From NCBI GenBank assembly GCA_001873435.1, contig MNZB01000002.1, positions 129,620-193,619 on the forward strand: a stretch of DNA of 64,000 nt, read 5' to 3'. The translations under genes were made by a program, and so were the position numbers. Of this stretch, positions 5,075-62,969 are shown in pieces. The DNA is from Candidatus Pacebacteria bacterium CG2_30_36_39. GTDB taxonomy: Bacteria > Patescibacteriota > Microgenomatia > UBA1400 > PJMF01. Below the pieces are notes generated by a model, which did no database searches, was not told the DNA's origin, and saw only the letters and a list, made by a program, of their open reading frames with translations. Position 1 is the first letter of the stretch. Each line of letters begins with the position of its first letter.

Positions 5075-5821
5075 GTGAGATATCTTACGGCTTATGAAAG
5101 AAATCAGTTAAGAAAATGGAATATTGATTTAGCTGATTTAGATAAATATGGTGAAATGCCAGTGGAATATATCACTGGTCATGTTGATTTTTATCAACGT
5201 GATTTTTTTGTTAATAAAAATGTTTTAATTCCTAGGATAGAGACAGAGGAATTAGTTGAAAAAATAGTTGGTGTTTTTGGAGATTTAAAAGAATCAATCC
5301 AATTTTTAGAAGTAGGTACTGGTAGTGGTGCCTTGGGTATTAGTGTTTTTCTTGAACTAATCAAAAAAGGTAGAGTTGTAGAGGCTACTTTAACTGATGT
5401 TTCTCCTGATGCTTTGCAAGTAGCGGAGAGAAATTGGCAGAGGTTATCACAAGATCCTGAGGATTTGGATAATGTTTCATTTGTTGAGGCTGATTTATTA
5501 AATCAAGTAGCTTTGGATGAAAGATTAGATTTTGTAGTAGCAAATCTCCCATATATTCCTCACGAGAGGTTGAATAAATTAATGCCTTCAGTTAGGGATT
5601 ATGAGCCAATGTTGGCTTTGGATGGTGGCTTTGATGGTTTGGAGTTAATTAAAAAATTAATTAAACAATTATGTGAGAGGAAATTTGTTGGTCAATTATT
5701 TTTAGAGATTGATGATTCTCATGATAAAGAGATTATTCAAGCTCTTTTGTTTAGTAAAAAAGTTGAGGTTTGGCAGGATGAGGCTGGTAAAAATCGTTTT
5801 GCTTGGCTAGATTTTAGCTAA
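5075..5821 (+). CDS. prmC: release-factor glutamine N5-methyltransferase (PrmC/HemK family)
   Basis: SAM-binding motif I 'LEVGTGSGALGISV'. Catalytic-loop variant 'VVANLPYIPH' (NPPY-type). About 250 aa. GTG start at 5075. Confidence 0.6.
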   Translation: MRYLTAYERNQLRKWNIDLADLDKYGEMPVEYITGHVDFYQRDFFVNKNVLIPRIETEELVEKIVGVFGDLKESIQFLEVGTGSGALGISVFLELIKKGRVVEATLTDVSPDALQVAERNWQRLSQDPEDLDNVSFVEADLLNQVALDERLDFVVANLPYIPHERLNKLMPSVRDYEPMLALDGGFDGLELIKKLIKQLCERKFVGQLFLEIDDSHDKEIIQALLFSKKVEVWQDEAGKNRFAWLDFS

Positions 5822-28288: not shown

Positions 28289-29143
28289 CTATAAGAATAG
28301 TAGCATTAAAGCTCCAGCTCCAATGGCTCCTAAGCCTACTGAGAGGTATTTTAGCCAGTTCTCTGGGCCTGTTTGAGGTAGAGTTGATGGCAATGGAGGT
28401 TGAGTTGGCTGAATAGTTACCGTTACGCTGCTAGATGACGATGAGCTAGAGCTACTGGAACTTCCACTGGAAGTGGGTTGTGCTGTAGGTTGAGCAGTTG
28501 GCTGAGAAGTGGGTTGTGCTGTAGGCTCAACAGTGGCTTGACCAGTTGGTAATGGCAAACACTCATTTGCGCCATCTTCTGGACTGTAACAATATGATCC
28601 AGAAGTACAATCAGCATCAGTATCACATTCGTCTGGCTGGGTAGTTGGAGTTGGCTCTTCAGTTGGACTTGGTTCGACGGTAGGCTCAGCAGTGGGAGTT
28701 GGAGTTGTACAGGCAGTCATGTTAGTTGTCCATGCTCCACCAGCAGAAGGACAACAGTAGTTTGTACCACCACATGGCTCAACTCTGCCTCTTACATTAC
28801 ACAAACTTTCAGCTGCTGATCCATCTGCTTCTGGAGGTGTACAGTTTCTTAAAACACCATCATTACCAGGGCATTGTTCAGTACATTGAGAAGCTTGTTG
28901 GCGAATATCTTGAGGTTTTTGTACTTGGTTTAAAGCGATGAAGCCACCGATTCCAAGAATTAAAACTATTAGACCAGCAATAATATAGGTATTGGTATTA
29001 GATTTTTTTTCTTGAGGAGGTTCTGTTTGAACTGGTGCTGCTGGAGCAGCTGGTTGTGTTGGATCAACTGGAGGGGCAGATACTGGTTGCTGTGGAACAG
29101 CGGTAGTTGGTGATGGTGGTTGTTGACCTGTTACATTAATCAT
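28289..29143 (-). CDS. LPXTG-anchored surface protein: N-terminal Pro-rich segment, signal-anchor TM, Cys-rich domain, Pro/Thr repeats, poly-Ser, LPQTG sorting signal
   Basis: C-terminus 'STLPQTGPENWLKYLSVGLGAIGAGALMLLFL' is an LPxTG motif followed by a hydrophobic tail. Repeats 'AQPTSQPTAQPTAQPTSS'. A run of 12 Ser. At least 14 Cys, including 'CPGNDG', 'CNVRGRVEPCGG' and 'CCPSAGG'. Confidence 0.7.
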   Translation of the reverse strand: MINVTGQQPPSPTTAVPQQPVSAPPVDPTQPAAPAAPVQTEPPQEKKSNTNTYIIAGLIVLILGIGGFIALNQVQKPQDIRQQASQCTEQCPGNDGVLRNCTPPEADGSAAESLCNVRGRVEPCGGTNYCCPSAGGAWTTNMTACTTPTPTAEPTVEPSPTEEPTPTTQPDECDTDADCTSGSYCYSPEDGANECLPLPTGQATVEPTAQPTSQPTAQPTAQPTSSGSSSSSSSSSSSSVTVTIQPTQPPLPSTLPQTGPENWLKYLSVGLGAIGAGALMLLFL

Positions 29144-29503: not shown

Positions 29504-31249
29504 ATGAATAAATTGATTAAGTTTTGTTTTAATTCTACATATTTCAAGTTAATTATAATTTTATTATTTGCGCTATTTTTAAGATTATTTAGATTATCAG
29601 AGTCCCCTCCAAGATTAACTCATGATGAAATGAGTATTGGTTACAATGCTTTTTCTATAATTAAAACTGGCAAGGATGAGTGGGGTAAGATTCTTCCTTT
29701 GGATTTTGAAGCATTTGGTGATCATAAATTACCAGGATACATATATGCATTGGCACCTTTTTTAGCTTTTTTTCAATTGAGTTCGTTTGTTGTTAAAATT
29801 CCATCAATTTTAGCTGGAGTAGCAGTTGTGATTGGTATTTTTTTGATTATAAAAAATCTCACAAAGAATGATTCATTGTCATTGTTTGGTGCTTTGCTAA
29901 TGGCTATAAGTCCTTGGTCAATTCAAATTTCCAGAATGGCGTTGGAATCTCATTTGGCCTTATTATTTTTTATTTTTGGCTTGTATTACTTGCTGACAAT
30001 GTTTGATTTTAAGAAGAATAATACTAAAAATTTTATTTTCAATAACTATAGAGTCATTCTTTCTGCAATTTTACTTGGGTTAACTTCATATTTTTATGTT
30101 GCTTACAGATTAATAACTTTTTTATTAATAATTATTTTATTTATTTTGTCTTTGAAATATGAATTAAATAGAAAAAAAATACTTATTTTTTGTTTATTTT
30201 TTTTAATAATAGTTTCTCCTATCATGCAGCAGATATTTGGCAAATCTGGATCAGCAAGATTTAATCAAATTTCTATGTTTTCTGATGAGGGGATAAATTC
30301 TACTATATTAGAACAACATAATTTTTGTTTTTTGTCACAGCCTAAATTTTTACCAAAAGTTTGTAGATTGATTTATAACAAACCATTTTTGTATGTTGAA
30401 ACCTTTACAAAAAATTACCTAACTTTTATCTTTCCAAGCTTTCTATTTATAAACGGAGATAAATTAGAATATTTAAATAATCCAGGTTTTGGTGAATTTT
30501 ATTTATTTTTGGTGCCATTTTATTTAATTGGTGTTTATGAATGGTTTAAAAAAACTGGCTATAAAGCAAATTTAATTAAAATTTGTTTTTTGATTTCACC
30601 CATTCCGTCTGCGCTAGCTGGTTATCCTCAAATTGTGAGAGGAAGTGCATTACTTCCATTTATTATTTTGTTTATTTCTTTTGGGATTTTTGAAGTATTT
30701 TCTTTAATAAAGAATAGATATTTTAAAATTATGTTTTATTTATTAATAATATTTTTACTATTAATTTCTTTTATTAGATTTTATGTTAGTTATACATATA
30801 TTTATCCGGGTAAATATGAAACAGCCTTTTATCCGTTGTCAGACAAGCTTGTCGCATTTTTAGATAATCAAGAATCTAATTATGACATGATATATTTTGA
30901 TAAAAATTCTTTTCCTGATGCTCATATTCTTATTTCTTTTTATCAAAAAATAGATCCGCTTTGGTATCAAGAAAATATATTACGTCCTATTAATAAGGAT
31001 GGCTTTGGATTTTCTCATCCAACAAAACTTGGAAAATATGAATTTGGGGAAAATATAGTTGATAATTTTATCTGTATGACTGATGACAAACGCAAGATTT
31101 TATATATTACCAATAATTCTCAAATTATTCCTCAATGGAACTTAAAAGATTTTTCTAATGTTCATATTCAAACAAAAATCTATGATATTGATAAAACAAG
31201 AGATGAGCTTAGGAGTAGTAATAAATTTTTAAGCATCTGTCATGATTAG
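29504..31249 (+). CDS. GT39/ArnT/PMT-like GT-C membrane glycosyltransferase, paralog A (581 aa); very AT-rich gene
   Basis: 'RLTHDEMSIGYNAFSIIKTGKDEWGKILPLDFEAFGDHKLPGYIY'. 12 or more TM segments. C-terminal soluble domain. Confidence 0.65.
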   Translation: MNKLIKFCFNSTYFKLIIILLFALFLRLFRLSESPPRLTHDEMSIGYNAFSIIKTGKDEWGKILPLDFEAFGDHKLPGYIYALAPFLAFFQLSSFVVKIPSILAGVAVVIGIFLIIKNLTKNDSLSLFGALLMAISPWSIQISRMALESHLALLFFIFGLYYLLTMFDFKKNNTKNFIFNNYRVILSAILLGLTSYFYVAYRLITFLLIIILFILSLKYELNRKKILIFCLFFLIIVSPIMQQIFGKSGSARFNQISMFSDEGINSTILEQHNFCFLSQPKFLPKVCRLIYNKPFLYVETFTKNYLTFIFPSFLFINGDKLEYLNNPGFGEFYLFLVPFYLIGVYEWFKKTGYKANLIKICFLISPIPSALAGYPQIVRGSALLPFIILFISFGIFEVFSLIKNRYFKIMFYLLIIFLLLISFIRFYVSYTYIYPGKYETAFYPLSDKLVAFLDNQESNYDMIYFDKNSFPDAHILISFYQKIDPLWYQENILRPINKDGFGFSHPTKLGKYEFGENIVDNFICMTDDKRKILYITNNSQIIPQWNLKDFSNVHIQTKIYDIDKTRDELRSSNKFLSICHD

Positions 31250-32942
31250 TATGTCTTTTAAAATTTCAAAGAAAATATTATTGAGTTTAATAGTAGTATT
31301 TTTATTTTCATTATTCATAAGTCGTAGTTTATTTACCAATCTCTTACCAAGAACAGATGATTTAGAACTACATGGAGCTAGGGTGGCAAGCTATTATTTA
31401 GCTTTAAAACAGGGGCAATTACCTGTTTATTGGGGACCAAATTTATATTATGGTTTTGGTTATCCTGTTTTTCTTTTTTCTTATCAATTTCCATATATAT
31501 TGGCAACACTTTTTTATGTCATGGGTTTTAGCATTGAGATTAGTCTCAATATTTTATTAATAATTTTTATAACTATTGGTGGGTTGGGAATTTTCTATCT
31601 TTCATATTTATTAAATAAAAATATTTATTTAGCAATTATTTCGAGTTTTATTTATCAAACATCTCCATACATACTATTAAATACTTTTGTTAGAGGAGCA
31701 TTGGGTGAAATAGCTTTTTTAAGTTTGTTTCCATGGGTTTTTGTCATGCTAATTCTACGTAAGCATGCCAATAAATGGTGGTATCTATTTTTTTCTGTTT
31801 TAATATTTACGAGCTTAATTTTGTCACATCCTGTTTCATTGCTGGTGGCGATGCCAATTATTGTTTTTTGGTTAATATTCAACGGTTATTATTCTGAATT
31901 AAAAAATGTTTTTAAGAATAAAAATAATTTAAATTTTATTTTTAGTTGTTTATTATCAATTGGCATTTCGTCATTTTATTGGATTCCATTTATTTTTGAG
32001 AAAAAAAATATTGTGATAGCTTCTCACAGTATTATTAATAATTTTTCTTTGAGATTTATATCTTTGAGCCAAATATTTTTTTCAAAATGGGGATATGGTG
32101 GAGCAGATTTAACCAAGTTGCATGATGTTTTTCCAGCCACTCTTGGATTTTCTATTATATTTATAGTCATGTATTCATTTTTTAAAATTTTTAATAAATA
32201 TAAACTTAACAAATTAAATAAAACATTTGATAAGAATATATTTTTTTGGTTAATTATTTTTTTTGTTGCTGTTTTTTTGATGTTATCAATATCTATAAAT
32301 ATCTGGAATTTTTCTAAAATTTTGCCATATCTACAATATCCTTGGCGGTTATTTTGGGTTACAGTTTTTTCTGGAGTAATGATCTTGAATAGTTTGAAAA
32401 GTATCAATAGATATTTATTGATACTTTTGTTGCTAATTAGTTTTCACCATGCGATTTATTATGCAAAACCATTAAGCTATATACACAACTCAGATCATGA
32501 CTGGTTGGAATATTTTGGAACTTCAACTTCAGACAATGAACTAAAACCAAAATGGTTTGATGAAAATAAAAATATTGGAATAGAAAATAAGATAGTGTTA
32601 AATTCAGAAAATGATAACAAAAAAATTACCAGCTTATTATGGACTGGAAGTAAAATAAGTTACCAAATATACCTTGAAGAACCAACTCAAGTAATTCAAA
32701 AAACAATGTATTTTCCTGGTTGGGAAGTGTATATAGATGGCAACAAAACCGAGATAGATTATCAAACAGCATCATATCCTGGTAGGATATTGTATTCAGT
32801 TCCACCAGGCAGTCATCAAATTATTAGTAAATTTACTAATAATACTTATCCAAGAAAAATTGGAATTTATTTTACTTTAATTTCTACCTCAACATGGATG
32901 TTATTGGTAATATTCGCTTTTTTTAATAAAAAACTACGCTAA
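31242..32942 (+). CDS. YfhO-like polytopic membrane protein, paralog 2 (566 aa); very AT-rich
   Basis: 'DDLELHGARVASYYLALKQGQLPVYW'. 'FYWIPFIFEKKN'. 'LQYPWRLFW'. C-terminal 'YFPGWEVYIDGNKTE'. Start overlaps the previous gene by 8 nt. Confidence 0.5.
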   Translation: MISMSFKISKKILLSLIVVFLFSLFISRSLFTNLLPRTDDLELHGARVASYYLALKQGQLPVYWGPNLYYGFGYPVFLFSYQFPYILATLFYVMGFSIEISLNILLIIFITIGGLGIFYLSYLLNKNIYLAIISSFIYQTSPYILLNTFVRGALGEIAFLSLFPWVFVMLILRKHANKWWYLFFSVLIFTSLILSHPVSLLVAMPIIVFWLIFNGYYSELKNVFKNKNNLNFIFSCLLSIGISSFYWIPFIFEKKNIVIASHSIINNFSLRFISLSQIFFSKWGYGGADLTKLHDVFPATLGFSIIFIVMYSFFKIFNKYKLNKLNKTFDKNIFFWLIIFFVAVFLMLSISINIWNFSKILPYLQYPWRLFWVTVFSGVMILNSLKSINRYLLILLLLISFHHAIYYAKPLSYIHNSDHDWLEYFGTSTSDNELKPKWFDENKNIGIENKIVLNSENDNKKITSLLWTGSKISYQIYLEEPTQVIQKTMYFPGWEVYIDGNKTEIDYQTASYPGRILYSVPPGSHQIISKFTNNTYPRKIGIYFTLISTSTWMLLVIFAFFNKKLR

Positions 32943-42727: not shown

Positions 42728-43039
42728 ATGGCAGAAAAAAAACAGTTATTAGCAAGAGAAATTGAAGAAAGATCAAAGCCTTTTTTAGATGAACTAAAGA
42801 AGCGTGGCATGGAAAATGAAGCTGCTAATATCACTGAATGGATTAGAAAAGTTGCTACTGAAAACATGAATACTGTTTCTCATATGTTGTATTTATTGCT
42901 ACAAAACAAAATGTTTAATGAAATCGAAGATGAACAAGGTGAGCCAGCTGAAGCTTTAATGTTTCTTTTTAATTTAATGAGAGACGCTTGGACTTTAAAT
43001 GTGAGATTGGAAATGTTAGTAGAGGAATTAAAAAAATGA
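42728..43039 (+). CDS. small acidic helical protein (103 aa), hypothetical
   Basis: ORF preceded by an 'ttggag' RBS-like sequence. Its stop overlaps the next start in an ATGA arrangement at 43036-43039. Confidence 0.4.
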   Translation: MAEKKQLLAREIEERSKPFLDELKKRGMENEAANITEWIRKVATENMNTVSHMLYLLLQNKMFNEIEDEQGEPAEALMFLFNLMRDAWTLNVRLEMLVEELKK

Positions 43040-43281
43040 TTTTACTTGAAACCAAAACCAATGCTTTAGTTGAAAGCTTACAAGATGAGCAGATGAAGGC
43101 AAATATCTTGCAATATTTGTGGTGGATCACGGAAAAAGGTAGTGTTGAGGCATTGGATGAGTTTTTAAATTTTCTAGAAGTCGAAGATGTTAAAAATATT
43201 CTCATGGAAATTGATCCTAATTTATTTTTTGAAGTGATTTTACTGGCAGAGGAAATGCAAAGAGATTCTTTAAAAAGATAA
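43036..43281 (+). CDS. small acidic helical protein (81 aa), possible tandem paralog of 42728. The track ORF 42988-43281 uses an upstream Met that is unlikely.
   Basis: 'gaggaa' lies 8 nt before the ATG at 43036. ATGA overlap with the upstream stop. Similar composition and helical heptads to the upstream protein. Confidence 0.4.
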   Translation: MILLETKTNALVESLQDEQMKANILQYLWWITEKGSVEALDEFLNFLEVEDVKNILMEIDPNLFFEVILLAEEMQRDSLKR

Positions 43282-43282
43282 A

Positions 43283-43312
43283 AAAAGAGCGAGGGGTTGC
43301 CTCGCTCTAGTT
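43283..43312. terminator. bidirectional terminator hairpin between convergent genes
   Basis: 'aaaaaagagcgaggggttgcctcgctctag' has stem gagcgagg/cctcgctc with loop ggtt and an A-run on the 5' side. Confidence 0.55.
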
Positions 43313-43320
43313 GTGGTTGC

Positions 43321-43677
43321 CTAAACTTTGAGACCTGGTTTTCTTGTATTGAGTAACCCGCGTGGGATTGCCCAATAAGCCAAAACTTTACCAAGTTCCT
43401 TGCCCAGAGTCAGTTCGTTGATCGCATATTCAAAATCATTTTTCCAAGGAAGAGCTTGAAGTTCTTCCCAGGTATAGATCCTGATATTAATCCATCTGAA
43501 GGCAGAGAGTTTTCTTTCCTCTACATTTTTTCGGATTATTGCGCCAAGCTCGCTGTCGCAGACAATGAAAATGCTGTTAAAGCGAGTGTCAAAAAGACCA
43601 GGGTAAAAAATCAAGGCTTTGAGTTTCTTGACATTGATACCAAGTTGTTCAGCAACCATCTCTCTAGTTATTACCAT
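43321..43677 (-). CDS. hypothetical protein (118 aa)
   Basis: ORF only. N-terminal 'ITREMVAEQLGINVKKLKAL' could be helix-turn-helix-like. Confidence 0.35.
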   Translation of the reverse strand: MVITREMVAEQLGINVKKLKALIFYPGLFDTRFNSIFIVCDSELGAIIRKNVEERKLSAFRWINIRIYTWEELQALPWKNDFEYAINELTLGKELGKVLAYWAIPRGLLNTRKPGLKV

Positions 43678-43834
43678 TTTTACTCTCCTTCCAGCTTGCC
43701 CCGCGATGGGACAGCTGACTAAGCGGATTGAAACTAAAAAGATAGAACTAGTATTATATCATAATATTATAAGACGTTTGAAATTGGGTGTATACTATTT
43801 GCTAGTGTTAACCTGCCAAAGAAAGGGAGGGTTT

Positions 43835-44188
43835 ATGCCTTCTGAAGAACAAGGGTTAAGAAGTGTGGCTGAAGCTATTGCTAAAGCGATGCGAGAAAAA
43901 GGACTTGAGCCTCAAGCCGAGTCGATGATGTCTATGGTGGACAAGGCTGAAGAACTAGATCCAATGATGATTGTTTATTTGAATAATTTTCTTTATCGAA
44001 ATGAGCTAAAAGCTGTAAAGGAAGACGAAAGTACCAAAGAAGCTTTCAAATTACTTCAATCTATTGTTGCTGGCATGATGGCTGAAATTGTTGAGCATCT
44101 TGACCATATTTTGTTGACTGAGGAAAATCCAGCTGAGGGTTTGTCTGCTGCAGCCAATGCTGTATTAGAGCGAAATCATCGCTCGTAA
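43835..44188 (+). CDS. hypothetical acidic helical protein (117 aa). The track ORF 43619-44188 probably uses a spurious upstream Met.
   Basis: 'aagggagg' RBS lies 6 nt before the ATG at 43835 ('MPSEEQGLRS...'). The upstream 72 codons of the track ORF overlap the minus-strand gene. Confidence 0.4.
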   Translation: MPSEEQGLRSVAEAIAKAMREKGLEPQAESMMSMVDKAEELDPMMIVYLNNFLYRNELKAVKEDESTKEAFKLLQSIVAGMMAEIVEHLDHILLTEENPAEGLSAAANAVLERNHRS

Positions 44189-44190
44189 GA

Positions 44191-44219
44191 TTGACATATT
44201 ATAGGACTTATTGTAGAAT
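44191..44219 (+). promoter_or_regulatory. consensus sigma70-type promoter: TTGACA, 17 nt, TAGAAT
   Basis: Read directly. TTGACA at 44191-44196, 17-nt spacer, TAGAAT at 44214-44219. Followed by a leader of about 160 nt before the GTG start at 44387. Confidence 0.45.
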
Positions 44220-44386
44220 GGGGGATTCGCTTTCATCAAGTGAAGACCCCATTTTTGCGTCTGAAACTTGAAATAGCGAGAGTCCTTTAACAAGACGAGA
44301 AAGTGTAAATCTTGTCAAGATAGATACCACTGAAATGGTGTCTATCATGGGCAAGATTTGCTCATGTCACAATAAAAGGAAATACC

Positions 44387-45460
44387 GTGTTACGTTTTAA
44401 CAAATTTCTGTCCTTTGGGCTGTTGGTTGTCCTTATGGTTTTGCCGGCTTGTTCGCTGAGCAATCCTTTGGCAACTCCAGCCTCTACCGCTACCGTGGAG
44501 TCAGTAACGCCTACAAATGCGCCTCTGCCTACTACGGATCAACCGCTTGCAACTAAGTTTGCTCCAACTTCAACGTTGGTGCCGACTAAGTCTGCAACGC
44601 TGACCACAACACCACAAGTATATTCATTCAGTTACTTCAACAGTCTCCAGCAGTATGGCGATGTAACCATCTATAACCACCATGGTTATACGGTTATCAA
44701 TCCGCCATATTATTCGTTGATCATCCCTGGCGTAAGCCATATGCAACGAATGAGTATGCTCCATTTGCCCATTACATCATCAATTGAGGATGCCAAGGCA
44801 GTTGCCGAAGAGCTTTTTCCAGGGAGTGAAATCTACTGGTCTGGGCTTGAAATTGATGGCGACTTGCCAGAGGGCATGATGCGTGGACTGCCGGAAAATT
44901 GGCAGTATGGAAAAACCCCGATGTCATCGTGGACTTCCATTGCAGTTAACGAGAAAATTGATTGGACTCAGGAATGGGTCTCAGTCAAAGGTATCGTTGA
45001 TAAAGCACGCAAGGATGGCGTTCCTGCAGAATCAATCACTCTGAAATACAATCAATTCGGCTACTTTTTCGTGAAGTGCGCCGAAGGGTCTGAAACTGAC
45101 CAGGTTTACCCTGGCATTGACCCAAGTGAGGGATTCGTTTTTCAAAACTTTGTGATGCCTGGAGAAACGATTAACTTCGACTCCATGTGTCCGAAGGCGG
45201 TGATGACTGGCTCAGGCCATATCTTCACTGGGCTGAAAGGTACCACTCGCACTGAAAAACAAGCTTTCACCATCGCTCTTGCCAATGCCTTCTTGGAAAA
45301 GCTGTATAGCTATCAAGATGGTAATGGTAAGCCGATCGGGATGTGCTTGCTTCAATCAGAGCTGGGCGGCGCCTCAAATGCCAAGCGAATCTGGTTCGGC
45401 GACATGATGTATGCTCCTTATGGTTTCCTGCCTCCGCTGGAAGCCTGGACAACGAAGTAA
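44387..45460 (+). CDS. lipoprotein of unknown function (357 aa) encoded in a locally G+C-rich island
   Basis: GTG start. Signal peptide plus lipobox 'LVVLMVLPAC|SLSN'. Thr/Pro/Ala-rich linker, then a globular domain. Composition is far more G+C-rich than the flanking genes. Confidence 0.55.
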   Translation: MLRFNKFLSFGLLVVLMVLPACSLSNPLATPASTATVESVTPTNAPLPTTDQPLATKFAPTSTLVPTKSATLTTTPQVYSFSYFNSLQQYGDVTIYNHHGYTVINPPYYSLIIPGVSHMQRMSMLHLPITSSIEDAKAVAEELFPGSEIYWSGLEIDGDLPEGMMRGLPENWQYGKTPMSSWTSIAVNEKIDWTQEWVSVKGIVDKARKDGVPAESITLKYNQFGYFFVKCAEGSETDQVYPGIDPSEGFVFQNFVMPGETINFDSMCPKAVMTGSGHIFTGLKGTTRTEKQAFTIALANAFLEKLYSYQDGNGKPIGMCLLQSELGGASNAKRIWFGDMMYAPYGFLPPLEAWTTK

Positions 45461-45468
45461 TAAAACAG

Positions 45469-45495
45469 GAGGGCGGGTAGAAATTACCCGCCCTC
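45469..45495. terminator. strong GC-rich hairpin after the lipoprotein gene
   Basis: Stem gagggcgggta (45469-45479) pairs with tacccgccctc (45485-45495). Loop gaaat. No clear U-tract follows. Confidence 0.4.
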
Positions 45496-45595
45496 TCATG
45501 GATATTAACTTCGGACATGAAAAGACTTTCTCGTCTTAAACCTTTTTTTCTTAACCCTTTCTCAAGATTAAAGCACCAGGTATAATCATTTTTAT

Positions 45596-47362
45596 ATGGT
45601 GGTGGATTTACTCAATAAACAAATAACTTTAATTCTCAAAGAGCTTGGTATTGCTAATCCACAACTCAATTTTGAGCATCCTGCTGACGAAAATCACGGT
45701 GACTGGAGTACTAATGCAGCTCTGCAGTATGCTAAGCAACTACCAGATATAAATAACCCTAGAAAATTAGCTGAAATTATCGTTGAAAAATTAAAACCCT
45801 TATTAAAAGATATCCCGGAAATCTGGCAAGTTTCTATTGCTGGACCTGGATTTATCAACTTTTCTTTGGCTAGAGAATATTTCCGTACTGAAATTGTGAA
45901 GATGAGTGAAAAAGCTCCTCAGGAATATTTTGCCAAAAAGGCTAAAGAAAATAAAAACAGAAAAGTAATTGTAGAATATTCTTCTCCAAACATTGCCAAG
46001 CCATTCACCATTGGTCATTTACGCTCAACTATTATTGGTGATGCTGTAGCCAATCTCTATGAAGCTCTTGGCTGGCAAGTTTATCGAGATAATCATCTTG
46101 GCGATTGGGGAACTCAATTCGGTAAATTAATTTATGCAATTAAAACTTGGGGCAACCAAGAAGATATTGATAAATCTAAGCAGCCAATCAAAGAATTAGT
46201 TACTTTATATGTAAAATTTCATGAAGAAGCTGAGAAAAATCCAAATATTGAAGACGATGGAAGAGCTTGGTTTAAAAAGCTTGAAGAAGGTGATGATGAA
46301 GCTCATCAATTATGGCAGTGGTGCATCGATCTTTCATGGAAGGAATTTCAGAGTATTTATGGCGAGCTAGGTATTTCTTTTACAGAAAACAATGGTCGTG
46401 GTTTTGGAGAATCATATTTTGAAGACAAGATGAGTGAAGCTGTTGATTTGTTGGAAACAAAACTTGCTCCAGAAAAAGCCGTAGAGAATGGCGCTCATTA
46501 TGCTGAAGGTGAAGATGGGGCAAAATTAATATTTTTTAATAATGAAGAACTACCACCATTAATGGTAATGAAAAAAGATGGGGCTACTTTATACGCTACG
46601 AGAGACTTTGCAACAGACTATTTCCGTCTTAAGAAATATGACAATCCAGATCTAATTGTTAATGAAGTTGGTGCTGAACAAAGCTTGTATTTTCAACAAT
46701 TATATAAAGTTGAAGAGATATTGGGTTGGTATAAGCCTGGTCAAAGAGTCCATGTTAAGCATGGTCTTTATCGTTTTAAAGATAAAAAAATGTCTACCAG
46801 AAAAGGTAATGTTATTTGGTTGGCTGATGTTATTAGTGAAGCCAAGGAACGTGCTGAAGCTTTATCTCCAGATAAAAAACACATTACTCAAACCATCGCT
46901 ATTGGAGCTTTAAAATGGAATGATTTGCGCAGTGAAACAAATAGAGATATTGTTTTTGATTGGGATGAACTTCTTAGTATGAAAGGAAATTCTGGGCCTT
47001 ATGTGCAGTACGCCACAGTTAGGGCTAAGAGTATTTTGCGTAAAGCTGCTCTAGAAGAATTTTCTCCTGGTTATGGCGATGATGCTTGGAAGATGAATAC
47101 AGAAGAATTGAATTTGGCCAGACACTTAGATAGATTTGTAGAAACTGTGCAATTGGCAGCTAGTGAGTTTGCTCCTCATCATTTAGCTAGCTATTTATTT
47201 GAACTCGCTCAACGATTTAATGTGCTTTATAACACTCATAAAATTGTTACCGCGGAGAACTCAGATGCCAGAGAAAGACGTTGTGTTTTAACTCAAGCTA
47301 CTGTCAAAACTTTAGAGTATGGATTGTCACTCCTTGGTATTCAAACACCAGAGGAAATGTAA
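45596..47362 (+). CDS. argS: arginine--tRNA ligase
   Basis: 'YSSPNIAKPFTIGHLRSTIIGDAVANLY' is the class I HIGH-region variant of ArgS. 'KMSTRKGNVIWL'. 588 aa. 'tataat' at 45578. Confidence 0.9.
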   Translation: MVVDLLNKQITLILKELGIANPQLNFEHPADENHGDWSTNAALQYAKQLPDINNPRKLAEIIVEKLKPLLKDIPEIWQVSIAGPGFINFSLAREYFRTEIVKMSEKAPQEYFAKKAKENKNRKVIVEYSSPNIAKPFTIGHLRSTIIGDAVANLYEALGWQVYRDNHLGDWGTQFGKLIYAIKTWGNQEDIDKSKQPIKELVTLYVKFHEEAEKNPNIEDDGRAWFKKLEEGDDEAHQLWQWCIDLSWKEFQSIYGELGISFTENNGRGFGESYFEDKMSEAVDLLETKLAPEKAVENGAHYAEGEDGAKLIFFNNEELPPLMVMKKDGATLYATRDFATDYFRLKKYDNPDLIVNEVGAEQSLYFQQLYKVEEILGWYKPGQRVHVKHGLYRFKDKKMSTRKGNVIWLADVISEAKERAEALSPDKKHITQTIAIGALKWNDLRSETNRDIVFDWDELLSMKGNSGPYVQYATVRAKSILRKAALEEFSPGYGDDAWKMNTEELNLARHLDRFVETVQLAASEFAPHHLASYLFELAQRFNVLYNTHKIVTAENSDARERRCVLTQATVKTLEYGLSLLGIQTPEEM

Positions 47363-55452: not shown

Positions 55453-55465
55453 AACAGGAGTGCTT
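55453..55465. repeat. left arm of a 13-bp perfect inverted repeat (aacaggagtgctt) flanking a G+C-rich gene
   Basis: Exact reverse complement at 56180-56192. Confidence 0.4.
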
Positions 55466-55517
55466 TTGAAGGCTTGTTGCTCGAACCCCTGTTTATCTTT
55501 TTGCGGCACCCTAGGTA

Positions 55518-56126
55518 TTAAAACGGTAAGGGAAAGACAAACTTGCCAGTTAGAAGAGCTGGTAAGTTGACGATCAAGGCGATGGGCCAGCCGGGGAGGT
55601 CATAGACAAAGAACTGCCATAGACCGCGCGGAATGCCCAGGTTAACCTTGAAGATGATTTGGGCCAAGTACATGGCTCCGCCGATAGGATCCCAGGCGCT
55701 AGTACGTCCACAGCCGGGATGGCGTAGGCCATGGCTGCGGAGAAGTACAAACTCTGGGCCGAAGTTGAAGATGAACTGAGCCCAGAGGGCCAGGACGTCG
55801 ACAACGGACATAACAAATTGGGCGCCGGCTAGATAAATCAGCCAGTCCCAGCTTGGGAAGAGATAGACGTAGGCTAACCAAGGGATGATCCCAAAGGTAT
55901 AGGTGCCTACGCCACCGGCGATACGATATTTAGTCTTTTCGCGGTGGTCAACGCAGCCTGCGCCATGATCTGCGCTAGGGCTTAATTCCATGTGATGGGT
56001 TAAGCCTAGGTAGAATAAGAGCGGTCCGTAGATCGCTGTGGCGAGGGTTAGATAGACGAACCAGTCTTCTGGGGAGGCGTTGATTGCAAAGCCGAATAGT
56101 GTTTCAAGCATTAGTAAAGTCTCCAA
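55518..56126 (-). CDS. hypothetical integral membrane protein (202 aa) in a G+C-rich island. Frame choice is uncertain because other frames are also open.
   Basis: This is the longest ORF of the island. It has 5-6 hydrophobic segments. 'HHMELSPSADHGAGCVDH' and 'LRHPGCG' His/Cys-containing loops. Local G+C is visibly above 50%, against roughly 30% around it. Confidence 0.35.
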   Translation of the reverse strand: METLLMLETLFGFAINASPEDWFVYLTLATAIYGPLLFYLGLTHHMELSPSADHGAGCVDHREKTKYRIAGGVGTYTFGIIPWLAYVYLFPSWDWLIYLAGAQFVMSVVDVLALWAQFIFNFGPEFVLLRSHGLRHPGCGRTSAWDPIGGAMYLAQIIFKVNLGIPRGLWQFFVYDLPGWPIALIVNLPALLTGKFVFPLPF

Positions 56127-56179
56127 TCTGGGTGCCGCATAAAAAAGACGTTATCTGTTTTATGCGACAGCCAAATATG

Positions 56180-56192
56180 AAGCACTCCTGTT
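56180..56192. repeat. right arm of the 13-bp inverted repeat (aagcactcctgtt)
   Basis: Reverse complement of 55453-55465. Confidence 0.4.
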
Positions 56193-56359
56193 AAAGAGCT
56201 GGTTTGTTTGGTTGAAAACGATGCTTTTTCGTTAGAAACAAGCAAACCACCAGACTATATTATCTCATAATATATTGTTATTTACAATATTTGGCTGTTC
56301 TTCTACTGACAAGAGAGTGGGAGTTGAATATAATTAAAAATTAGGTTTAACTCGAGATT

Positions 56360-59031: not shown

Positions 59032-60681
59032 ATGTATTTAAACAGCAATCCTTGGATTTTTGGAGACGAGTACATTTACATAAGTAAAGCCAGAAATTTA
59101 AAATTTGGAATAGACGTTTTAGCAGATACAACAATAGGACATAGTTATCCTCCCCTATATTCATACCTACTATCTCTCGTTATTGGAAATGATCCAGTTT
59201 CTACTTATAGAAATATACAAATATTAAATTTTTTTTCCTCTCAATTTATTTTATTAATTTCTTTTTACTTTTTAAATAAAACTTATGATTTCACCAAACA
59301 AAAAAATGGTTTTGTTTATTTAATCTTTTCATATTTTGGAATAGCAAGTTTATCTACTATTTTAGGTTACAACTTTGTAGCAATGAGTGAAAACCTATTC
59401 ATACCATTAGTATTTTTAATATTTTCTTTAACTAATTATTTATTAAGTAAAAATAAAATTAACTATAAATTACTTTTTTCAATTGCTCTTTTAATATCTT
59501 GTTCCATTTTAACCAGAACTATCGGTATTATACTAATTCCTGTTTTCCTACTATCAATGTTGCCAAGTTTTATAAAATCTAAGAATACAAAAAAAATATT
59601 TTTAGATTCTGTATTATTTCTATTTTTTTCAATCATTCCATATTTAATTTTTAAAAAAGTAGAAAATTTATTTACCCCTAGCACCATTCAGGAGATTTCT
59701 GGTGATTATGATTCTTTGTTTAAAGCTTATGTTGGAGTAATAAAAGATTTTTTTCTTGGTAAAAATAATTTTTTTATTTCATTAAAAGTCATTGGGAATC
59801 ACATTATTTACTTATTTTTTTCAACCTTCTTTTTACCTTTTTTATTTATAATTAATGATTTTGTCGAATTTGTTAAAAGCAAAAAGATAAAAGGTGAATT
59901 AATTTTTGTTTTAACATCTTCTTTGCTGTTTTTTATACCTTCATACTTACACGATTATTTAGGATTTTTCAGAAATGAAATAAAATATTCTACATATTTT
60001 AGGTATGCTGATGCTAGTATCATTATTATGATTGCATATTCATTAATTAGACTTTTTGAAGTGACAAAAAATAAACTTAAGATATATAAAAATAGCTATT
60101 TTTTATATTTTTTTATATCAATGATTTTAACTTTATTTTTACCAGTTAGAGATTTTTATGTAACTATTAATTCCCTTGGTTGGACTTGGCTAGATATATT
60201 TAAGCAAAATGCTCTAATAATTAAAATTATATCTCTACTTTTATTATCTATTTTTTTATTTTTTATAAAATATAAAAAATACAATTTGTTCTTACTTTCA
60301 ATAATTATTTTAAATTTGTTTTCTATTTTTCCGATACTTAAAATGAATACATGGTTATCAACAAATAAAGAAAACTTGGCACTTGAACATACAATTTCAA
60401 ATATTTTAAGTAATAATAAAAAGATTCCTTTTTATATAGATAAAAACAATACAAAAGATGATAGTTTTGTGGGACCAATTTATTATGGAAAGTATTTCCT
60501 ATTATTTAATAGCAATGAAAAAATTCCAATAAAACCAATAAATATTAAAGAATTAAATGGTAAAAAACAATTTGTTTTTTTGGGAAAATCTAAAGATGAT
60601 ATTTTTAACATATATAATTTTAACGAAGTTATATCTATATCTGAAAATTTAAAAATTGGTATTATTTATGAGAATAAATGA
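59032..60681 (+). CDS. polytopic membrane protein (549 aa), extremely AT-rich; possibly another lipid-linked glycosyltransferase or polymerase
   Basis: More than 12 hydrophobic segments. N-terminal loop 'IFGDEYIYISKARNL'. No soluble catalytic domain recognised. Confidence 0.4.
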   Translation: MYLNSNPWIFGDEYIYISKARNLKFGIDVLADTTIGHSYPPLYSYLLSLVIGNDPVSTYRNIQILNFFSSQFILLISFYFLNKTYDFTKQKNGFVYLIFSYFGIASLSTILGYNFVAMSENLFIPLVFLIFSLTNYLLSKNKINYKLLFSIALLISCSILTRTIGIILIPVFLLSMLPSFIKSKNTKKIFLDSVLFLFFSIIPYLIFKKVENLFTPSTIQEISGDYDSLFKAYVGVIKDFFLGKNNFFISLKVIGNHIIYLFFSTFFLPFLFIINDFVEFVKSKKIKGELIFVLTSSLLFFIPSYLHDYLGFFRNEIKYSTYFRYADASIIIMIAYSLIRLFEVTKNKLKIYKNSYFLYFFISMILTLFLPVRDFYVTINSLGWTWLDIFKQNALIIKIISLLLLSIFLFFIKYKKYNLFLLSIIILNLFSIFPILKMNTWLSTNKENLALEHTISNILSNNKKIPFYIDKNNTKDDSFVGPIYYGKYFLLFNSNEKIPIKPINIKELNGKKQFVFLGKSKDDIFNIYNFNEVISISENLKIGIIYENK

Positions 60682-61261
60682 TAAAGAAATTACAATTGAT
60701 ATTTTTGTTTATATTGGTTTAGTTTCATTTATATCTTATTTTATTTCTAATAGCATTATTTTTATTTTAAACTATTTTTTAGTAGAAAAGTATTTTTTAG
60801 TTAATAAAATTACTACTAATCAAAAAACAATTATAATTATATTTATTTTGTTAATAATAAGCTTTATTTTTAACAAAATAAATATTTACAAACTAAAGGT
60901 AAAAACTCAACTAATGATACTTTTAATAGTATCTTTTTTAACACTAGGTTCTTCTTTTTATTTATCTAGAATTACTAGTTATTGGAAAGAAATACCAAAA
61001 ATACATTTAATAAAACCAAAATCTGGGATGCAAGGAACAATTATAACTTTATATGGTAATAATTTTGGAGAAGAATTCGAAAAGGGTACAGTGCTTCTTG
61101 GTAATGAGGAGTTAGTTATTAAATATTGGTCTAATACTAAAATTAAGGTCGAGCAACCAGTCCCGAATAATTTTGGAAAAAAGGAATTAAAAATAATAAA
61201 AATAAACAAAAAATTATCTGATCCAATAGAATATACCGTAATAAATCCATCTAAACTTTAA
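60656..61261 (+). CDS. membrane-anchored protein with C-terminal IPT/TIG-like beta-sandwich domain (201 aa)
   Basis: Three or four N-terminal TM helices, then 'IKPKSGMQGTIITLYGNNFGEEFEKGTVLLGNEELVIKYWSNTKIKV', which has an IPT/TIG-like P..G..GT.I.I.G.NF pattern. Confidence 0.35.
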   Translation: MVLFMRINDKEITIDIFVYIGLVSFISYFISNSIIFILNYFLVEKYFLVNKITTNQKTIIIIFILLIISFIFNKINIYKLKVKTQLMILLIVSFLTLGSSFYLSRITSYWKEIPKIHLIKPKSGMQGTIITLYGNNFGEEFEKGTVLLGNEELVIKYWSNTKIKVEQPVPNNFGKKELKIIKINKKLSDPIEYTVINPSKL

Positions 61262-61262
61262 T

Positions 61263-61808
61263 ATGTTAGTAATATCAACCATTTTTTTACATTTATTATT
61301 ATTTATCTTAAAAAAAATCAAGTTTGACTTTGGAGTTGATGTTAATTTTAGACTTTTTGTATTTTTTGAGTTGTTTTTGTTGACATTTTTTATGATAAAA
61401 AGCTTTTTTTATATTAAAAAAAATAAATTAAATGTTAGTTTGAGCAATAATTTTGTTTTTAATTCATATTTATTTAAACTTTTCAACAACAAGACTACGA
61501 GGTATATTTTAATTCCTTCTACATTATTTACATTAGCGATATTTTTTAGTTTAGCATCAAACTATGGATTCCATATGTTTTTATCTTATTTGTCACCATT
61601 TTTTTTATATGTTTTTTTTATTATTTTTGAAAAAAAAATTAAAAATGATAAAAGTTTGATTTTTTTTCTATTTATTTTTTATTTAATATTTGATACTCAA
61701 GAAAACAGTTTTTTAAAAAAAGTTAGCTTAATTTTATTATCAACAATCATTGCAACGGTTTTTGTAAAAGAAATAAAAAAATTATTAGTTTCTCGCAAAA
61801 ATTTCTAA
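61263..61808 (+). CDS. small polytopic membrane protein (181 aa), hypothetical
   Basis: ORF with 4-5 hydrophobic segments. Extremely AT-rich. Confidence 0.3.
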   Translation: MLVISTIFLHLLLFILKKIKFDFGVDVNFRLFVFFELFLLTFFMIKSFFYIKKNKLNVSLSNNFVFNSYLFKLFNNKTTRYILIPSTLFTLAIFFSLASNYGFHMFLSYLSPFFLYVFFIIFEKKIKNDKSLIFFLFIFYLIFDTQENSFLKKVSLILLSTIIATVFVKEIKKLLVSRKNF

Positions 61809-62969
61809 TATATTTTGTGAATATTTTTCCCAACTTAATTCCTTAAAAACAGTATCTCTCGCATTTTTTGAAATTTTTTCATACATTTTTTTATTGTTTA
61901 GTAAATAATTTATGTTTTTTACCAAAGAGCTAACTGATTTGGCTTCAAAAATAAAACCATTTTCTTTATTTTTTATTATCTCAGAAACTCCAGCGTCAGA
62001 AGAAATAACTGCTGGTTTACCATACGACATAGCTTCAACTGGAGCCAATCCCCATGTTTGTTTTACAGCAGGAAAAACAAAAATATAAGAGATTTCGTAA
62101 AGGGCAGCCAGTTCATCTTCAGATAAAGAACCAGTAAAAATAATTCTTTCTGATAAGTTTAGTTTTTTAATTAATTTTTTTAAATTATTTAACTCACTTC
62201 CAGAACCACCAATAATTCCTATAACATTTTTATTTTTTAATTTAAGGAAAGATCTTATAAAGTCGTCTATTCTTTTTAAAGGTTCTAATTTGCTAACAGT
62301 AAGTATTACCTTTTTATTTTTTAATTTATACCGATCTATAATCTTATTCTTAATTTCTTTATCTACTTCTTTTTTTTCGAAACCAGTGTGAACAACAATA
62401 GAATCTCTATTGAATGTATCTTTAACAATTTTTTTATTTTTTCTATCCAAAACTATTATATTATCAACTGATTCTACTATTTTTCTTTCTGTATATAGAT
62501 AAATAAGTTTTATTGGATAAAAAAATAACTTATTAAGTTTCCACCAATTTCTCAAAGGAAATCTATGCCAAGGGCTAAGTTCATTAAACATCCAAAAAAT
62601 TTTAGCTTTAGTATTTATTTTTTTATATAAAAAAGCAGAAAAATAAGATGGTGGATTATGACAATTTATTATTAAGTGACCTTTTTTCATTTTTTTGTAT
62701 ATTTTGTAAAAAAAGAAAGGAAAAAAAACTGACAAGTATTTTTGTTTAAGAAAAATACTACTATGGTCAGAAACAGAAACAATATTTTTTTTAAGTTTTT
62801 TAACTAAGTTAGGATAACAATTTTTTTCATCATAAAAATATGTGTATAAAGTTACATTATGACCTTTTTTAATAAGTTCATCCAGTAAATTAAGTATTTG
62901 TCTTTCTGCCCCACCATACATATCCAATAATGGATGTACTAAAGCTATATTAAGTTTGTTTTTTTTCAT
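61785..62969 (-). CDS. GT4 (GT-B) glycosyltransferase
   Basis: 'IALVHPLLDMYGGAERQILNL' N-terminus. 'WGLAPVEAMSYGKPAVISSDAGVSEIIKN'. 'FVFPA'. Confidence 0.75.
   Translation of the reverse strand: MKKNKLNIALVHPLLDMYGGAERQILNLLDELIKKGHNVTLYTYFYDEKNCYPNLVKKLKKNIVSVSDHSSIFLKQKYLSVFFPFFFYKIYKKMKKGHLIINCHNPPSYFSAFLYKKINTKAKIFWMFNELSPWHRFPLRNWWKLNKLFFYPIKLIYLYTERKIVESVDNIIVLDRKNKKIVKDTFNRDSIVVHTGFEKKEVDKEIKNKIIDRYKLKNKKVILTVSKLEPLKRIDDFIRSFLKLKNKNVIGIIGGSGSELNNLKKLIKKLNLSERIIFTGSLSEDELAALYEISYIFVFPAVKQTWGLAPVEAMSYGKPAVISSDAGVSEIIKNKENGFIFEAKSVSSLVKNINYLLNNKKMYEKISKNARDTVFKELSWEKYSQNILEIFARN

Follow-up and report, generated by a model that had tools for sequence, protein, structure and literature searches.

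A G+C-rich lipoprotein gene of a Candidatus Pacebacteria genome as a candidate end-paired, structure-selected mRNA

Long-range pairing between the 5′ and 3′ regions of a transcript and structured, stable messenger RNAs (mRNAs) are known kinds of RNA organisation. The stability or function of the abundant, long-lived Escherichia coli lpp and ompA mRNAs, which encode envelope proteins, and of the coding regulatory RNA RNAIII of Staphylococcus aureus depends on extensive structure, including long-range helices, and the processing stems of ribosomal RNA (rRNA) operons, which are substrates of RNase III, are distant inverted repeats that bracket a GC-rich structured RNA in an AT-rich genome. A tac/fbi fold-back has been described for the hok mRNA (PMC9841398). 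Here we analyse a stretch of 64,000 nucleotides (nt) from Candidatus Pacebacteria bacterium CG2_30_36_39, a member of the Candidate Phyla Radiation (CPR) or Patescibacteria (assembly GCA_001873435.1, contig MNZB01000002.1, positions 129,620 to 193,619 of the forward strand). We call this whole stretch the window and give all coordinates within it. Our subject is the gene of a 357-amino-acid (aa) orphan lipoprotein, OIP74460.1 (coding sequence, CDS, 44387-45460, + strand, GTG start), which reaches 47.8% GC in a window of 33.5% G+C. We hold, with moderate confidence, that positions 44191-45549 are one self-contained, vertically inherited CPR transcription unit, that its whole mRNA is selected for structure and that the GC excess is the footprint of this selection. 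The argument is carried by conservation, synteny, covariation, complementarity of the ends, excess structure in the CDS and saturated synonymous sites, all of them demonstrated here computationally.

The predicted closing duplex and the leader

The 5′ and 3′ untranslated regions (UTRs) of the unit contain the two arms of a predicted duplex. The 5′ arm, IR-L (AAGACGAGAAAGU; AAGACGAGAAAGT), occupies 44292-44304 (+), and its 13 nt are 100% complementary to those of the 3′ arm, IR-R (ACUUUCUCGUCUU, 45525-45537, +). IR-L is purine-rich, and IR-R is pyrimidine-rich and without local structure (z -0.4). Among the lipoprotein units found in related lineages (family 1), this inverted repeat (IR) is perfect over 13-15 nt in all six loci in which both ends of the unit are present. 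The duplexes there have energies between -21 and -27 kcal/mol and can be extended to ~20 bp with a 3-nt bulge. The bases that flank its invariant core covary (GAAAGU/ACUUUC, GAAAUAGU/ACUAUUUC and GAAGUAAUA/UAUUACUUC, besides a GAAAGA variant), with five pairs changed on both sides, and the observed values were reached by only 0-1 of 500 shuffles. For each IR-L, the complementarity extends further with the IR-R of the same locus than with the arms of other loci. In the predicted full-length transcripts, the 5′-3′ duplex was part of the minimum free energy (MFE) structure, with a pair probability of ~1.0, in all nine units.

A GC hairpin stands 8 nt past the stop codon and 29 nt before IR-R. The initial annotation had described it as 11 perfectly paired bp at 45469-45495, exactly as recovered by our hairpin and repeat scan, and when folded it comprises 12 bp at 45468-45496 (+; -24.1 kcal/mol, z -6.8). 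Equivalents with differing sequence occur in loci L013, L015, L026, L033, L183 and L010. On the + strand the hairpin is followed by UCAUGGAUAUU and not by a U-tract, its T-run being found only on the minus strand (likewise in L013, L026 and L033), so that it does not have the form of an intrinsic terminator of the lipoprotein gene. Because this U-tract is missing, read-through to IR-R is plausible. From the sequence, the transcript likely ends at the U-run that follows IR-R (45543-45549, +); a T-run after IR-R is also present in L013, L015, L026 and L033.

The leader is common to eight lineages, which are all the relatives whose 5′ flank was examined, down to a protein identity of 26%. They share one order of elements, namely a sigma70 promoter, a 5′ domain closed by a helix that we call P1, the sequence CTTTAAC, the IR-L core GACGAGAA, a hairpin (P2), and a Shine-Dalgarno (SD) sequence with the start codon. 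The leader of the window, folded from 44226 to 44400, has an energy of -57.2 kcal/mol (z -6.66). P2 is a 21-bp two-part hairpin with a GAAA-type loop (44307-44359, +; -29.8 kcal/mol, z -8.2), in which 44307-16 pairs with 44350-59 in the lower stem and 44319-29 with 44336-46 in the upper one; the 12-bp imperfect hairpin that had been noticed at 44319-44346 is thus real and is the upper part of a larger structure. Across the homologues, 95.8% of P2 cells are paired, and 13 of the 21 pairs show compensatory changes on both sides. Neither the covariation score nor the percentage paired was reached by any of 500 shuffles, the both-sides pair count was reached by 1/500, and slid controls gave at most 46% paired. 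Since many of its pairs are G-U, the P2 structure belongs to the sense-strand RNA.

Upstream of P2, helix P1 (UUCGCU/AGCGAG) closes leader domain 1 (44226-44280, +; -17.7 kcal/mol, z -3.9). Inspection, without a formal count, revealed a P1-type closing helix of differing sequence in all eight loci (for example, UUCGUUACAU/AUGUAACGAG in L015 and GGAUACAUA/UAUGUGUUC in L184). Immediately 5′ of IR-L is a conserved single-stranded block, YYCUUUAAC (44283-44291, +), whose CTTTAAC is invariant in 8/8 family-1 leaders. The SD sequence AAAGGA, read from the sequence 6 nt before the GTG start codon (44375-44389, +), pairs with UCCUUU at 44283-44288 in the leader-only fold and with a UCCUUU in codons 9-10 in the full-length fold, and no partner is conserved across homologues. 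A search of 44189-44400 with the Rfam 15 covariance models yielded no match even at E<=10, and a covariance model of the family-1 leader found no second copy in the window. The initial suggestion that the leader could be a regulatory RNA element is not only supported but extended, to an element conserved in eight lineages, with strong covariation and no Rfam family.

The unit opens with a sigma70-type promoter, TTGACA-17-TAGAAT (44191-44219, +), which had been claimed to be a consensus one and indeed matches the consensus at 11 of 12 positions, being the top site of the region. Its -35 and -10 elements, spaced by 16-17 nt, are kept in 8/8 family-1 loci, and no conservation is seen upstream of the -35. 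The spacer holds ATTATAGGA (44198-44206), which has a single exact occurrence in the window and recurs in the promoters of a second gene family, described below. This 9-mer, often in the form ATTATAGGAT, is found in promoters of both families (L183, L184, L013, L118 and L185-L190), directly 3′ of the -35 in family 1 and overlapping the -10 in family 2. It was considered as a general promoter element, an idea that we dropped because it is unique in the window. Its position relative to the -10 differs between the families, and it may represent either the operator of a regulator common to both or a trace of the shared ancestry of the chassis.

A terminator-like hairpin starts right after the -10 hexamer (44220-44256, +; -17.3 kcal/mol, z -3.5), with GGGG..CCCC around UUCGCUU/AAGUGAA and then U5, which bears out the G4...C4 dyad with a T-run reported initially. 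This 5′-end hairpin and its U-run can form in the Pacebacteria clade, with the 5′ arm abutting the -10 hexamer. By inspection, sequence changes keep the outer stem complementary in L013, L026, L033 and L118, and the stem is missing in L183 and L184. The hairpin may act as a terminator of read-through from the upstream open reading frame (ORF) or as an attenuator.

The coding region and a sister unit

The rise in GC is concentrated in the CDS. Its GC content at third codon positions (GC3) is 0.50, compared with a mean gene GC3 of 0.26 (standard deviation 0.075), and 200-nt windows within it go up to 0.43-0.515 GC. The leader (44189-44386) has just 0.38-0.43, and a value of 0.39-0.40 is reached even before it, in the two small upstream ORFs (43321-44188). 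The island of ~50% G+C that had been drawn from 44189 to 45500 holds for the CDS but not for the leader. Likewise, the lipoprotein gene does stand out from the rest of the window as a GC3 outlier, but not alone, as a second island of ~53% GC (GC3 0.61) exists at 55518-56111 on the minus strand; with its ORF counted as 55518-56126, the value is 52.5%. Codon usage departs from that of the host as strongly as first stated (CTG 40% vs 3%, CCG 33% vs 7%), with AGA/AGG and ATA avoided. Expression-linked codon bias is not the cause, because the GC3 of the housekeeping genes frr, encoding the ribosome recycling factor (RRF), and secDF is only 0.18-0.25; translational selection was also rejected in view of the codons themselves, since an AT-rich genome would not have GCC, GGC, CTG and CCG as its optimal codons.

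We compared the MFE of the CDS with that of synonymous-codon shuffles that leave protein, codon usage and GC content unchanged. The lipoprotein CDS of the window folds at -385 kcal/mol vs -316 ± 7 for its shuffles (z -9.5). Two family-1 homologues gave z-scores of -7.1 and -6.6 and three family-2 CDSs gave -5.2 (the sister gene in the window), -3.1 and -10.5, compared with +0.4 to -3.0 for 16 control genes of the window. With dinucleotide shuffles, the lipoprotein CDS had a z-score of -7.2 in the sense and -3.6 in the antisense direction. The lowest control value (-3.0) belongs to a gene of ordinary GC (32.7%) at 5075-5821 (+), which shows a mild excess of structure.

The only other GC3 outlier of the window lies in a sister unit with the same architecture (55453-56287, minus strand). 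Its promoter, TTGTAA-17-GATAAT (56287-56259), is followed by a P1 domain, a CTTTAAC block (CTCTTTAAC, 56196-56190) 5′ of the sister P2 hairpin, and an IR-L (AACAGGAGUGCUU, 56192-56180). P2 and an SD sequence precede the CDS of a 197-aa polytopic membrane protein, AUK08_01635 (56111-55518), and downstream of it is an IR-R complementary to the sister IR-L (AAGCACUCCUGUU, 55465-55453) with a U-rich tail. This gene is unrelated to the lipoprotein gene and has its own complementary pair. In its homologues (P0023-P0027, 46-62% identity), found in four other contexts (loci L185-L190), the GC island is retained together with the promoter (with ATATTATAGGAT), UUCUUUAAC, P2 and the IR pair; four of five family-2 leaders have the YYCUUUAAC block at the equivalent position. 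What the two families have in common is the layout and short motifs; their sequences cannot be aligned. In particular, the family-2 IR occupies the same position as that of family 1 with a different sequence (AACAGGAGUG..); it shows a compensatory change from AAC/GUU to UUC/GAA in L187, varied 3′ extensions among homologues and two U.G wobbles in the helix of L185 and L188. When the window was scanned for TTTAAC followed by an IR with a partner of at least 12 nt, the two GC3-outlier genes were the only non-low-complexity matches. The same scan with an IR of at least 13 nt gave no match outside the two families in 1.4 Mb of sequence, and no third unit was found in the 13 kb beyond the window ends. 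The initial account of a single island, accurate as to the leader and the hairpins, had thus missed the inverted leader copy, the CDS structure and the sister unit at 55.4-56.3 kb.

An unrelated membrane-protein gene is thus built on this chassis with a complementary pair of its own, and in our preferred reading the two units represent a class of "armoured", end-paired mRNAs for envelope proteins rather than a one-off. We envisage that transcription would pass the GC hairpin and reach IR-R, which would pair with IR-L and close the ~1.3-kb mRNA into a loop, with both ends buried in helices. The outcome would be a message that is compact, resistant to nucleases and long-lived, and that encodes an abundant envelope protein. 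The closed state might also gate translation or 3′ processing, in the manner of the tac/fbi fold-back of the hok mRNA. We infer a function in mRNA stability or in closed-state translational control. More tentatively, and with less confidence than an even chance would warrant, we suggest that the CPR/Patescibacteria possess a previously undescribed class of genes expressed as such mRNAs, with a shared UTR chassis (promoter with ATTATAGGA, P1, YYCUUUAAC, gene-specific closing duplex, P2) and a selection for structure that makes GC islands, in which the RNA might have a role beyond coding. It may, for instance, be extremely long-lived in cells that have very few ribosomes, be unlocked in a regulated way, or serve a further structural or regulatory purpose.

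The encoded lipoprotein is, from its sequence, a fast-evolving extracytoplasmic protein. As initially annotated, it has a signal peptide (MLRFNKFLSFGLLVVLMVLPAC, with a basic n-region and a hydrophobic h-region) and an LPAC lipobox, and lacks recognisable domains, searches of Pfam, NCBIfam and PHROG having returned none. Equivalent N-termini are present in P0016, P0017, P0019, P0020, L026 and L033. The proline at position -2 of its L-P-A-C lipobox is non-canonical, whereas homologues have the canonical L-[SVA]-[AG]-C at the aligned position (LSAC, LVAC, LSGC, LAAC). All full-length homologues have a lipobox, a T/P-rich linker and the invariant cysteines C231 and C268, which probably form a disulfide. 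A sequence-profile search of the PDB found no relative with a solved structure. AlphaFold2 (AF2) run on a seven-sequence alignment predicted an alpha/beta core with a confidence score (pLDDT) of 75-90 for residues ~92-340, compared with a pLDDT of 35 from the single sequence, and a Foldseek search of this core against the PDB gave no significant match (best E 0.026, TM score 0.11). A type-2 periplasmic-binding fold recurred among the Foldseek matches but only at noise level, and we rejected it.

Other parts of the window deviate in composition in different ways. The gene at 28289-29143 (-) encodes a 284-aa protein with PT repeats and a weak LPXTG-like C-terminus; its 45.5% GC comes from second codon positions (GC2 0.60, GC3 0.21) and is an effect of amino-acid composition, unlike that of the two structured units. 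Two blocks of very low GC (29504-32942 and 59032-62969; 18-26% GC, GC3 0.14-0.20) carry PMT_2-like, GT4 and polysaccharide-synthesis genes. Glycosyltransferase genes dominate the window, which resembles a variable surface-glycan region. Closer to the lipoprotein unit, the convergent small ORFs 43036-43281 (+) and 43321-43677 (-) are separated by a 9-bp GC hairpin (43286-43308), which has its T-run on the minus strand and is likely the terminator of the minus-strand ORF. An outer perfect 12-nt inverted repeat (43851-43862/45548-45559, AAGGGTTAAGAA / TTCTTAACCCTT) encloses both the lipoprotein unit and the 117-aa ORF upstream of it; we treat this repeat as probably due to chance because it is not conserved in L013 or L033.

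Distribution, age and alternative explanations

The same gene, with the same flanks and orientation, is present in at least nine independently assembled JGI metagenomes and in several NCBI metagenome-assembled genomes (MAGs). An exhaustive search of 1.84 billion representative proteins, which also served as the check for a donor lineage proposed in the initial annotation, returned only six relatives, at 26-42% identity, and no donor lineage. A word-indexed protein search retrieved only the gene's own cluster, to which a profile added only P0021, probably because the T/P-rich linker swamped the search. In a metagenome scan with a 17-mer, one of 108 matches was true (L118), and in a genome scan three of 22 (L023, L026 and L033).

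In three of the relatives (L013, L033 and L118), the unit occupies the position that it has in the window, with argS on one side and a PMT_2 glycosyltransferase cluster and small orphan ORFs on the other. In these syntenic relatives, nt identity is 71-83% for the flanks and ~77-82% for the leader. Protein identity between the window and L033 is 72% for ArgS, 58% for PMT, 49% for the upstream small ORF and 39% for the lipoprotein; the upstream 117-aa ORF has 49-54% identity across the syntenic relatives. The lipoprotein and ArgS trees agree in topology. The gene is GC-rich in each of the lineages (47-54% GC, GC3 0.45-0.65), in flanks or hosts of 32-42% GC. Four-fold degenerate sites, taken within identical amino acids, are saturated between lineages (identity 0.22-0.32 vs 0.25-0.26 expected), and yet they have 43-65% GC in the lipoprotein gene vs 18-24% in argS and PMT. 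Because these saturated sites remain GC-rich, the GC excess is actively maintained and is not a decaying foreign signature; under selection for structure, GC3 would stay high after saturation because synonymous sites are chosen to maximise pairing. The gene is thus found at the same position and GC-rich in related genomes, the picture of an ancestral gene under unusual constraint that the initial annotation had itself foreseen as the alternative to a foreign origin.

Some loci differ from this common pattern. L015 and L183 carry the unit in other genomic contexts. In L010 (GCA_964457085.1, 8001-9450), the family-1 C-terminal domain is fused to an unrelated N-terminal domain of ~200 aa (P0021, 437 aa), the leader and IR-L are missing, and the 3′ GC hairpin and IR-R (ACTTCTCGTC) are retained; its syntenic locus L183 has the complete unit, and L010/P0021 looks like a deletion or fusion derivative. 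The MAG contigs L026 and L033 are labelled 'uncultured Pseudomonadales bacterium', but they have 34-36% GC and are syntenic with the Pacebacteria window (argS 77% nt identity), so that these bins are probably misclassified or contaminated.

Among the other explanations, the one that survives best, although we consider it unlikely, is that of an ordinary cis-regulatory leader (a riboswitch, an attenuator or a protein-binding element) with an incidental IR match and incidental CDS structure. The leader is highly conserved and structured, has a terminator-like hairpin and U-run near its 5′ end and alternative pairings for UUCGCUU, and sequesters the SD sequence when folded alone. However, it matches no Rfam family, the IR covaries in two unrelated gene families, and the CDS z-scores are extreme outliers; moreover, the same chassis serves two unrelated proteins.

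A recombination cassette is distinctly unlikely. In that case the leader and 3′ trailer would be homology arms or recombination sites, between which GC-rich alleles would be swapped from a population or mobile pool, keeping the GC high and the protein diverse. This would agree with a protein evolving faster than its flanks (39% vs 72% identity) beside a leader that is ~77-82% identical, with a gene GC of ~0.47-0.54 regardless of host GC, and with the different contexts of L015 and L183. Nevertheless, the lipoprotein topology follows that of ArgS, scans of phage, plasmid and viral sequences provided no pool or vector, and a cassette would explain neither the excess CDS structure relative to codon-usage-preserving shuffles nor the P2 covariation and its G-U pairs.

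Surface lipoproteins are classic phase-variable genes, and the locus can also be read as an invertible DNA segment. A recombinase would flip 44305-45524 between IR-L and IR-R and uncouple the gene from its fixed promoter; transcripts entering the segment in its OFF orientation would be stopped by the T-run that the GC hairpin has on the minus strand. In fact, the perfect 13-15-bp IR brackets the gene and leaves the promoter and domain 1 outside, and the restriction of the T-run to the minus strand recurs in L013, L026 and L033. Still, we find inversion very unlikely. All assemblies show one orientation, no recombinase is found nearby in three different contexts (where the neighbouring small ORFs have no family matches), and the structured CDS would be left unexplained. 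The IR sequences are gene-specific instead of forming a shared recombinase site, and the U.G wobbles of L185 and L188 would be A.C mismatches in DNA. RNA pairing is favoured over a recombinase site because of this gene specificity, the tolerated wobbles and the single orientation.

Recent horizontal acquisition, the first explanation offered for this locus, is highly improbable. It would have involved a moron-like single-gene island with its own promoter and terminator from a donor of ~50% GC, and the strongly atypical codon usage, the unit's own promoter and hairpin and its presence in other contexts in L015 and L183 would be in line with it. The syntenic position in diverged relatives (L013, L033 and L118), the congruent topology and the saturated but still GC-rich synonymous sites contradict it. 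No donor emerged, and the same leader accompanies the gene in 5/6 contexts read, the exception being the fused gene P0021/L010. Near the unit there are no mobility genes or direct repeats, its neighbours being glycosyltransferases, small orphan ORFs and argS; no flanking tRNA turned up, although no scan was aimed at tRNAs, and our scans found no phage, plasmid, viral or insertion sequence (IS) relatives of the unit. Furthermore, composition cannot by itself yield a z-score of -9.5 against shuffles that preserve codon usage. An assembly chimera or mis-join, also raised initially, had only the abrupt composition change in its favour and is refuted, with negligible residual probability, by identical junctions in the nine or more independent metagenome assemblies and several MAGs and by the conservation of the architecture in other species.

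Several points weigh against a structure-selected, end-paired mRNA, the explanation that we prefer. We infer the transcript boundaries (transcription start site, TSS, and 3′ end), the read-through of the GC hairpin, the pairing in vivo and the function. The IR helix is short (13-15 bp) and its analysis is based on only six family-1 and five family-2 lineages, which include some close relatives. Family 2 has the weaker shuffle control, with the both-sides pair count reached by 24/500 shuffles and the percentage of cells paired by 46/500. Sites that act in DNA should likewise give covarying inverted repeats, and neither ribosomes nor co-transcriptional kinetics enter into the thermodynamic folding of a 1.3-kb RNA. 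No helix that sequesters the SD sequence proved to be conserved, so that a hok-like translational switch is at most a possibility. Our explanation accounts only in part for the terminator-like hairpin at 44220-44256, which overlaps the predicted TSS. GC-biased gene conversion could add to the composition, as could the repeated replacement of alleles from a GC-rich pool. Finally, our explanation offers no reason why just these two envelope-protein genes would need such mRNAs.

Significance and comparison with known systems

We found no description of such units in CPR in the literature searched. What appears to be new is the combination of a shared UTR chassis, gene-specific closing helices, rRNA-like CDS structure and persistent GC islands in two unrelated CPR envelope-protein families, and the chance that this combination represents a new class is considerable. 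Compositional islands are routinely taken as horizontal transfer; the GC island studied here is a counter-example, in which composition is a signature of selection on mRNA structure, and a synonymous-shuffle z-score combined with the saturation of 4-fold sites provides a test for such islands. The units also point to an undescribed post-transcriptional strategy in CPR bacteria, tiny cells with few ribosomes whose RNA metabolism is almost uncharted. If our explanation is true, the chassis would offer a searchable motif for major surface proteins of uncultivated CPR lineages and a natural design for very stable bacterial mRNAs.

At the DNA level, the unit, one gene of deviant GC with a promoter to itself and a hairpin downstream, resembles phage morons and other single-gene islands, but it lies outside any prophage, is syntenic and vertically inherited, and has held its composition after synonymous saturation. 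It shares with invertons a functional segment bracketed by inverted repeats beside a fixed promoter; unlike them, it is seen in one orientation only, has no recombinase nearby, and has gene-specific IRs in which U.G wobbles are tolerated. At the RNA level, its distant inverted repeats around a GC-rich structured RNA in an AT-rich genome recall the rRNA processing stems, although the bracketed RNA is here a translated mRNA and the duplex of 13-15 bp (~20 bp with the bulge) is short for RNase III. As for lpp, ompA and RNAIII, none of them is a compositional island in its own genome, none has the P1-YYCUUUAAC-IR-L-P2 chassis, and none has sequence or Rfam similarity with the unit. The hok-type type I toxin mRNAs (also aapA1 and dinQ) differ in that hok ORFs encode toxic peptides of ~50 aa and are accompanied by an antisense RNA, whereas the ORFs described here encode 197 and 357 aa, no antisense (minus-strand) promoter was found within 45500-45650, there is no conserved SD-sequestering switch, and the CDS is a GC island with rRNA-like structure. 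Nevertheless, both kinds of mRNA have membrane-directed products and complementary 5′ and 3′ blocks, which in our units covary and are predicted to pair with a probability of ~1, and the conserved long-distance 5′UTR-3′UTR duplex that characterises hok is, on computational evidence, also a property of the units described here.

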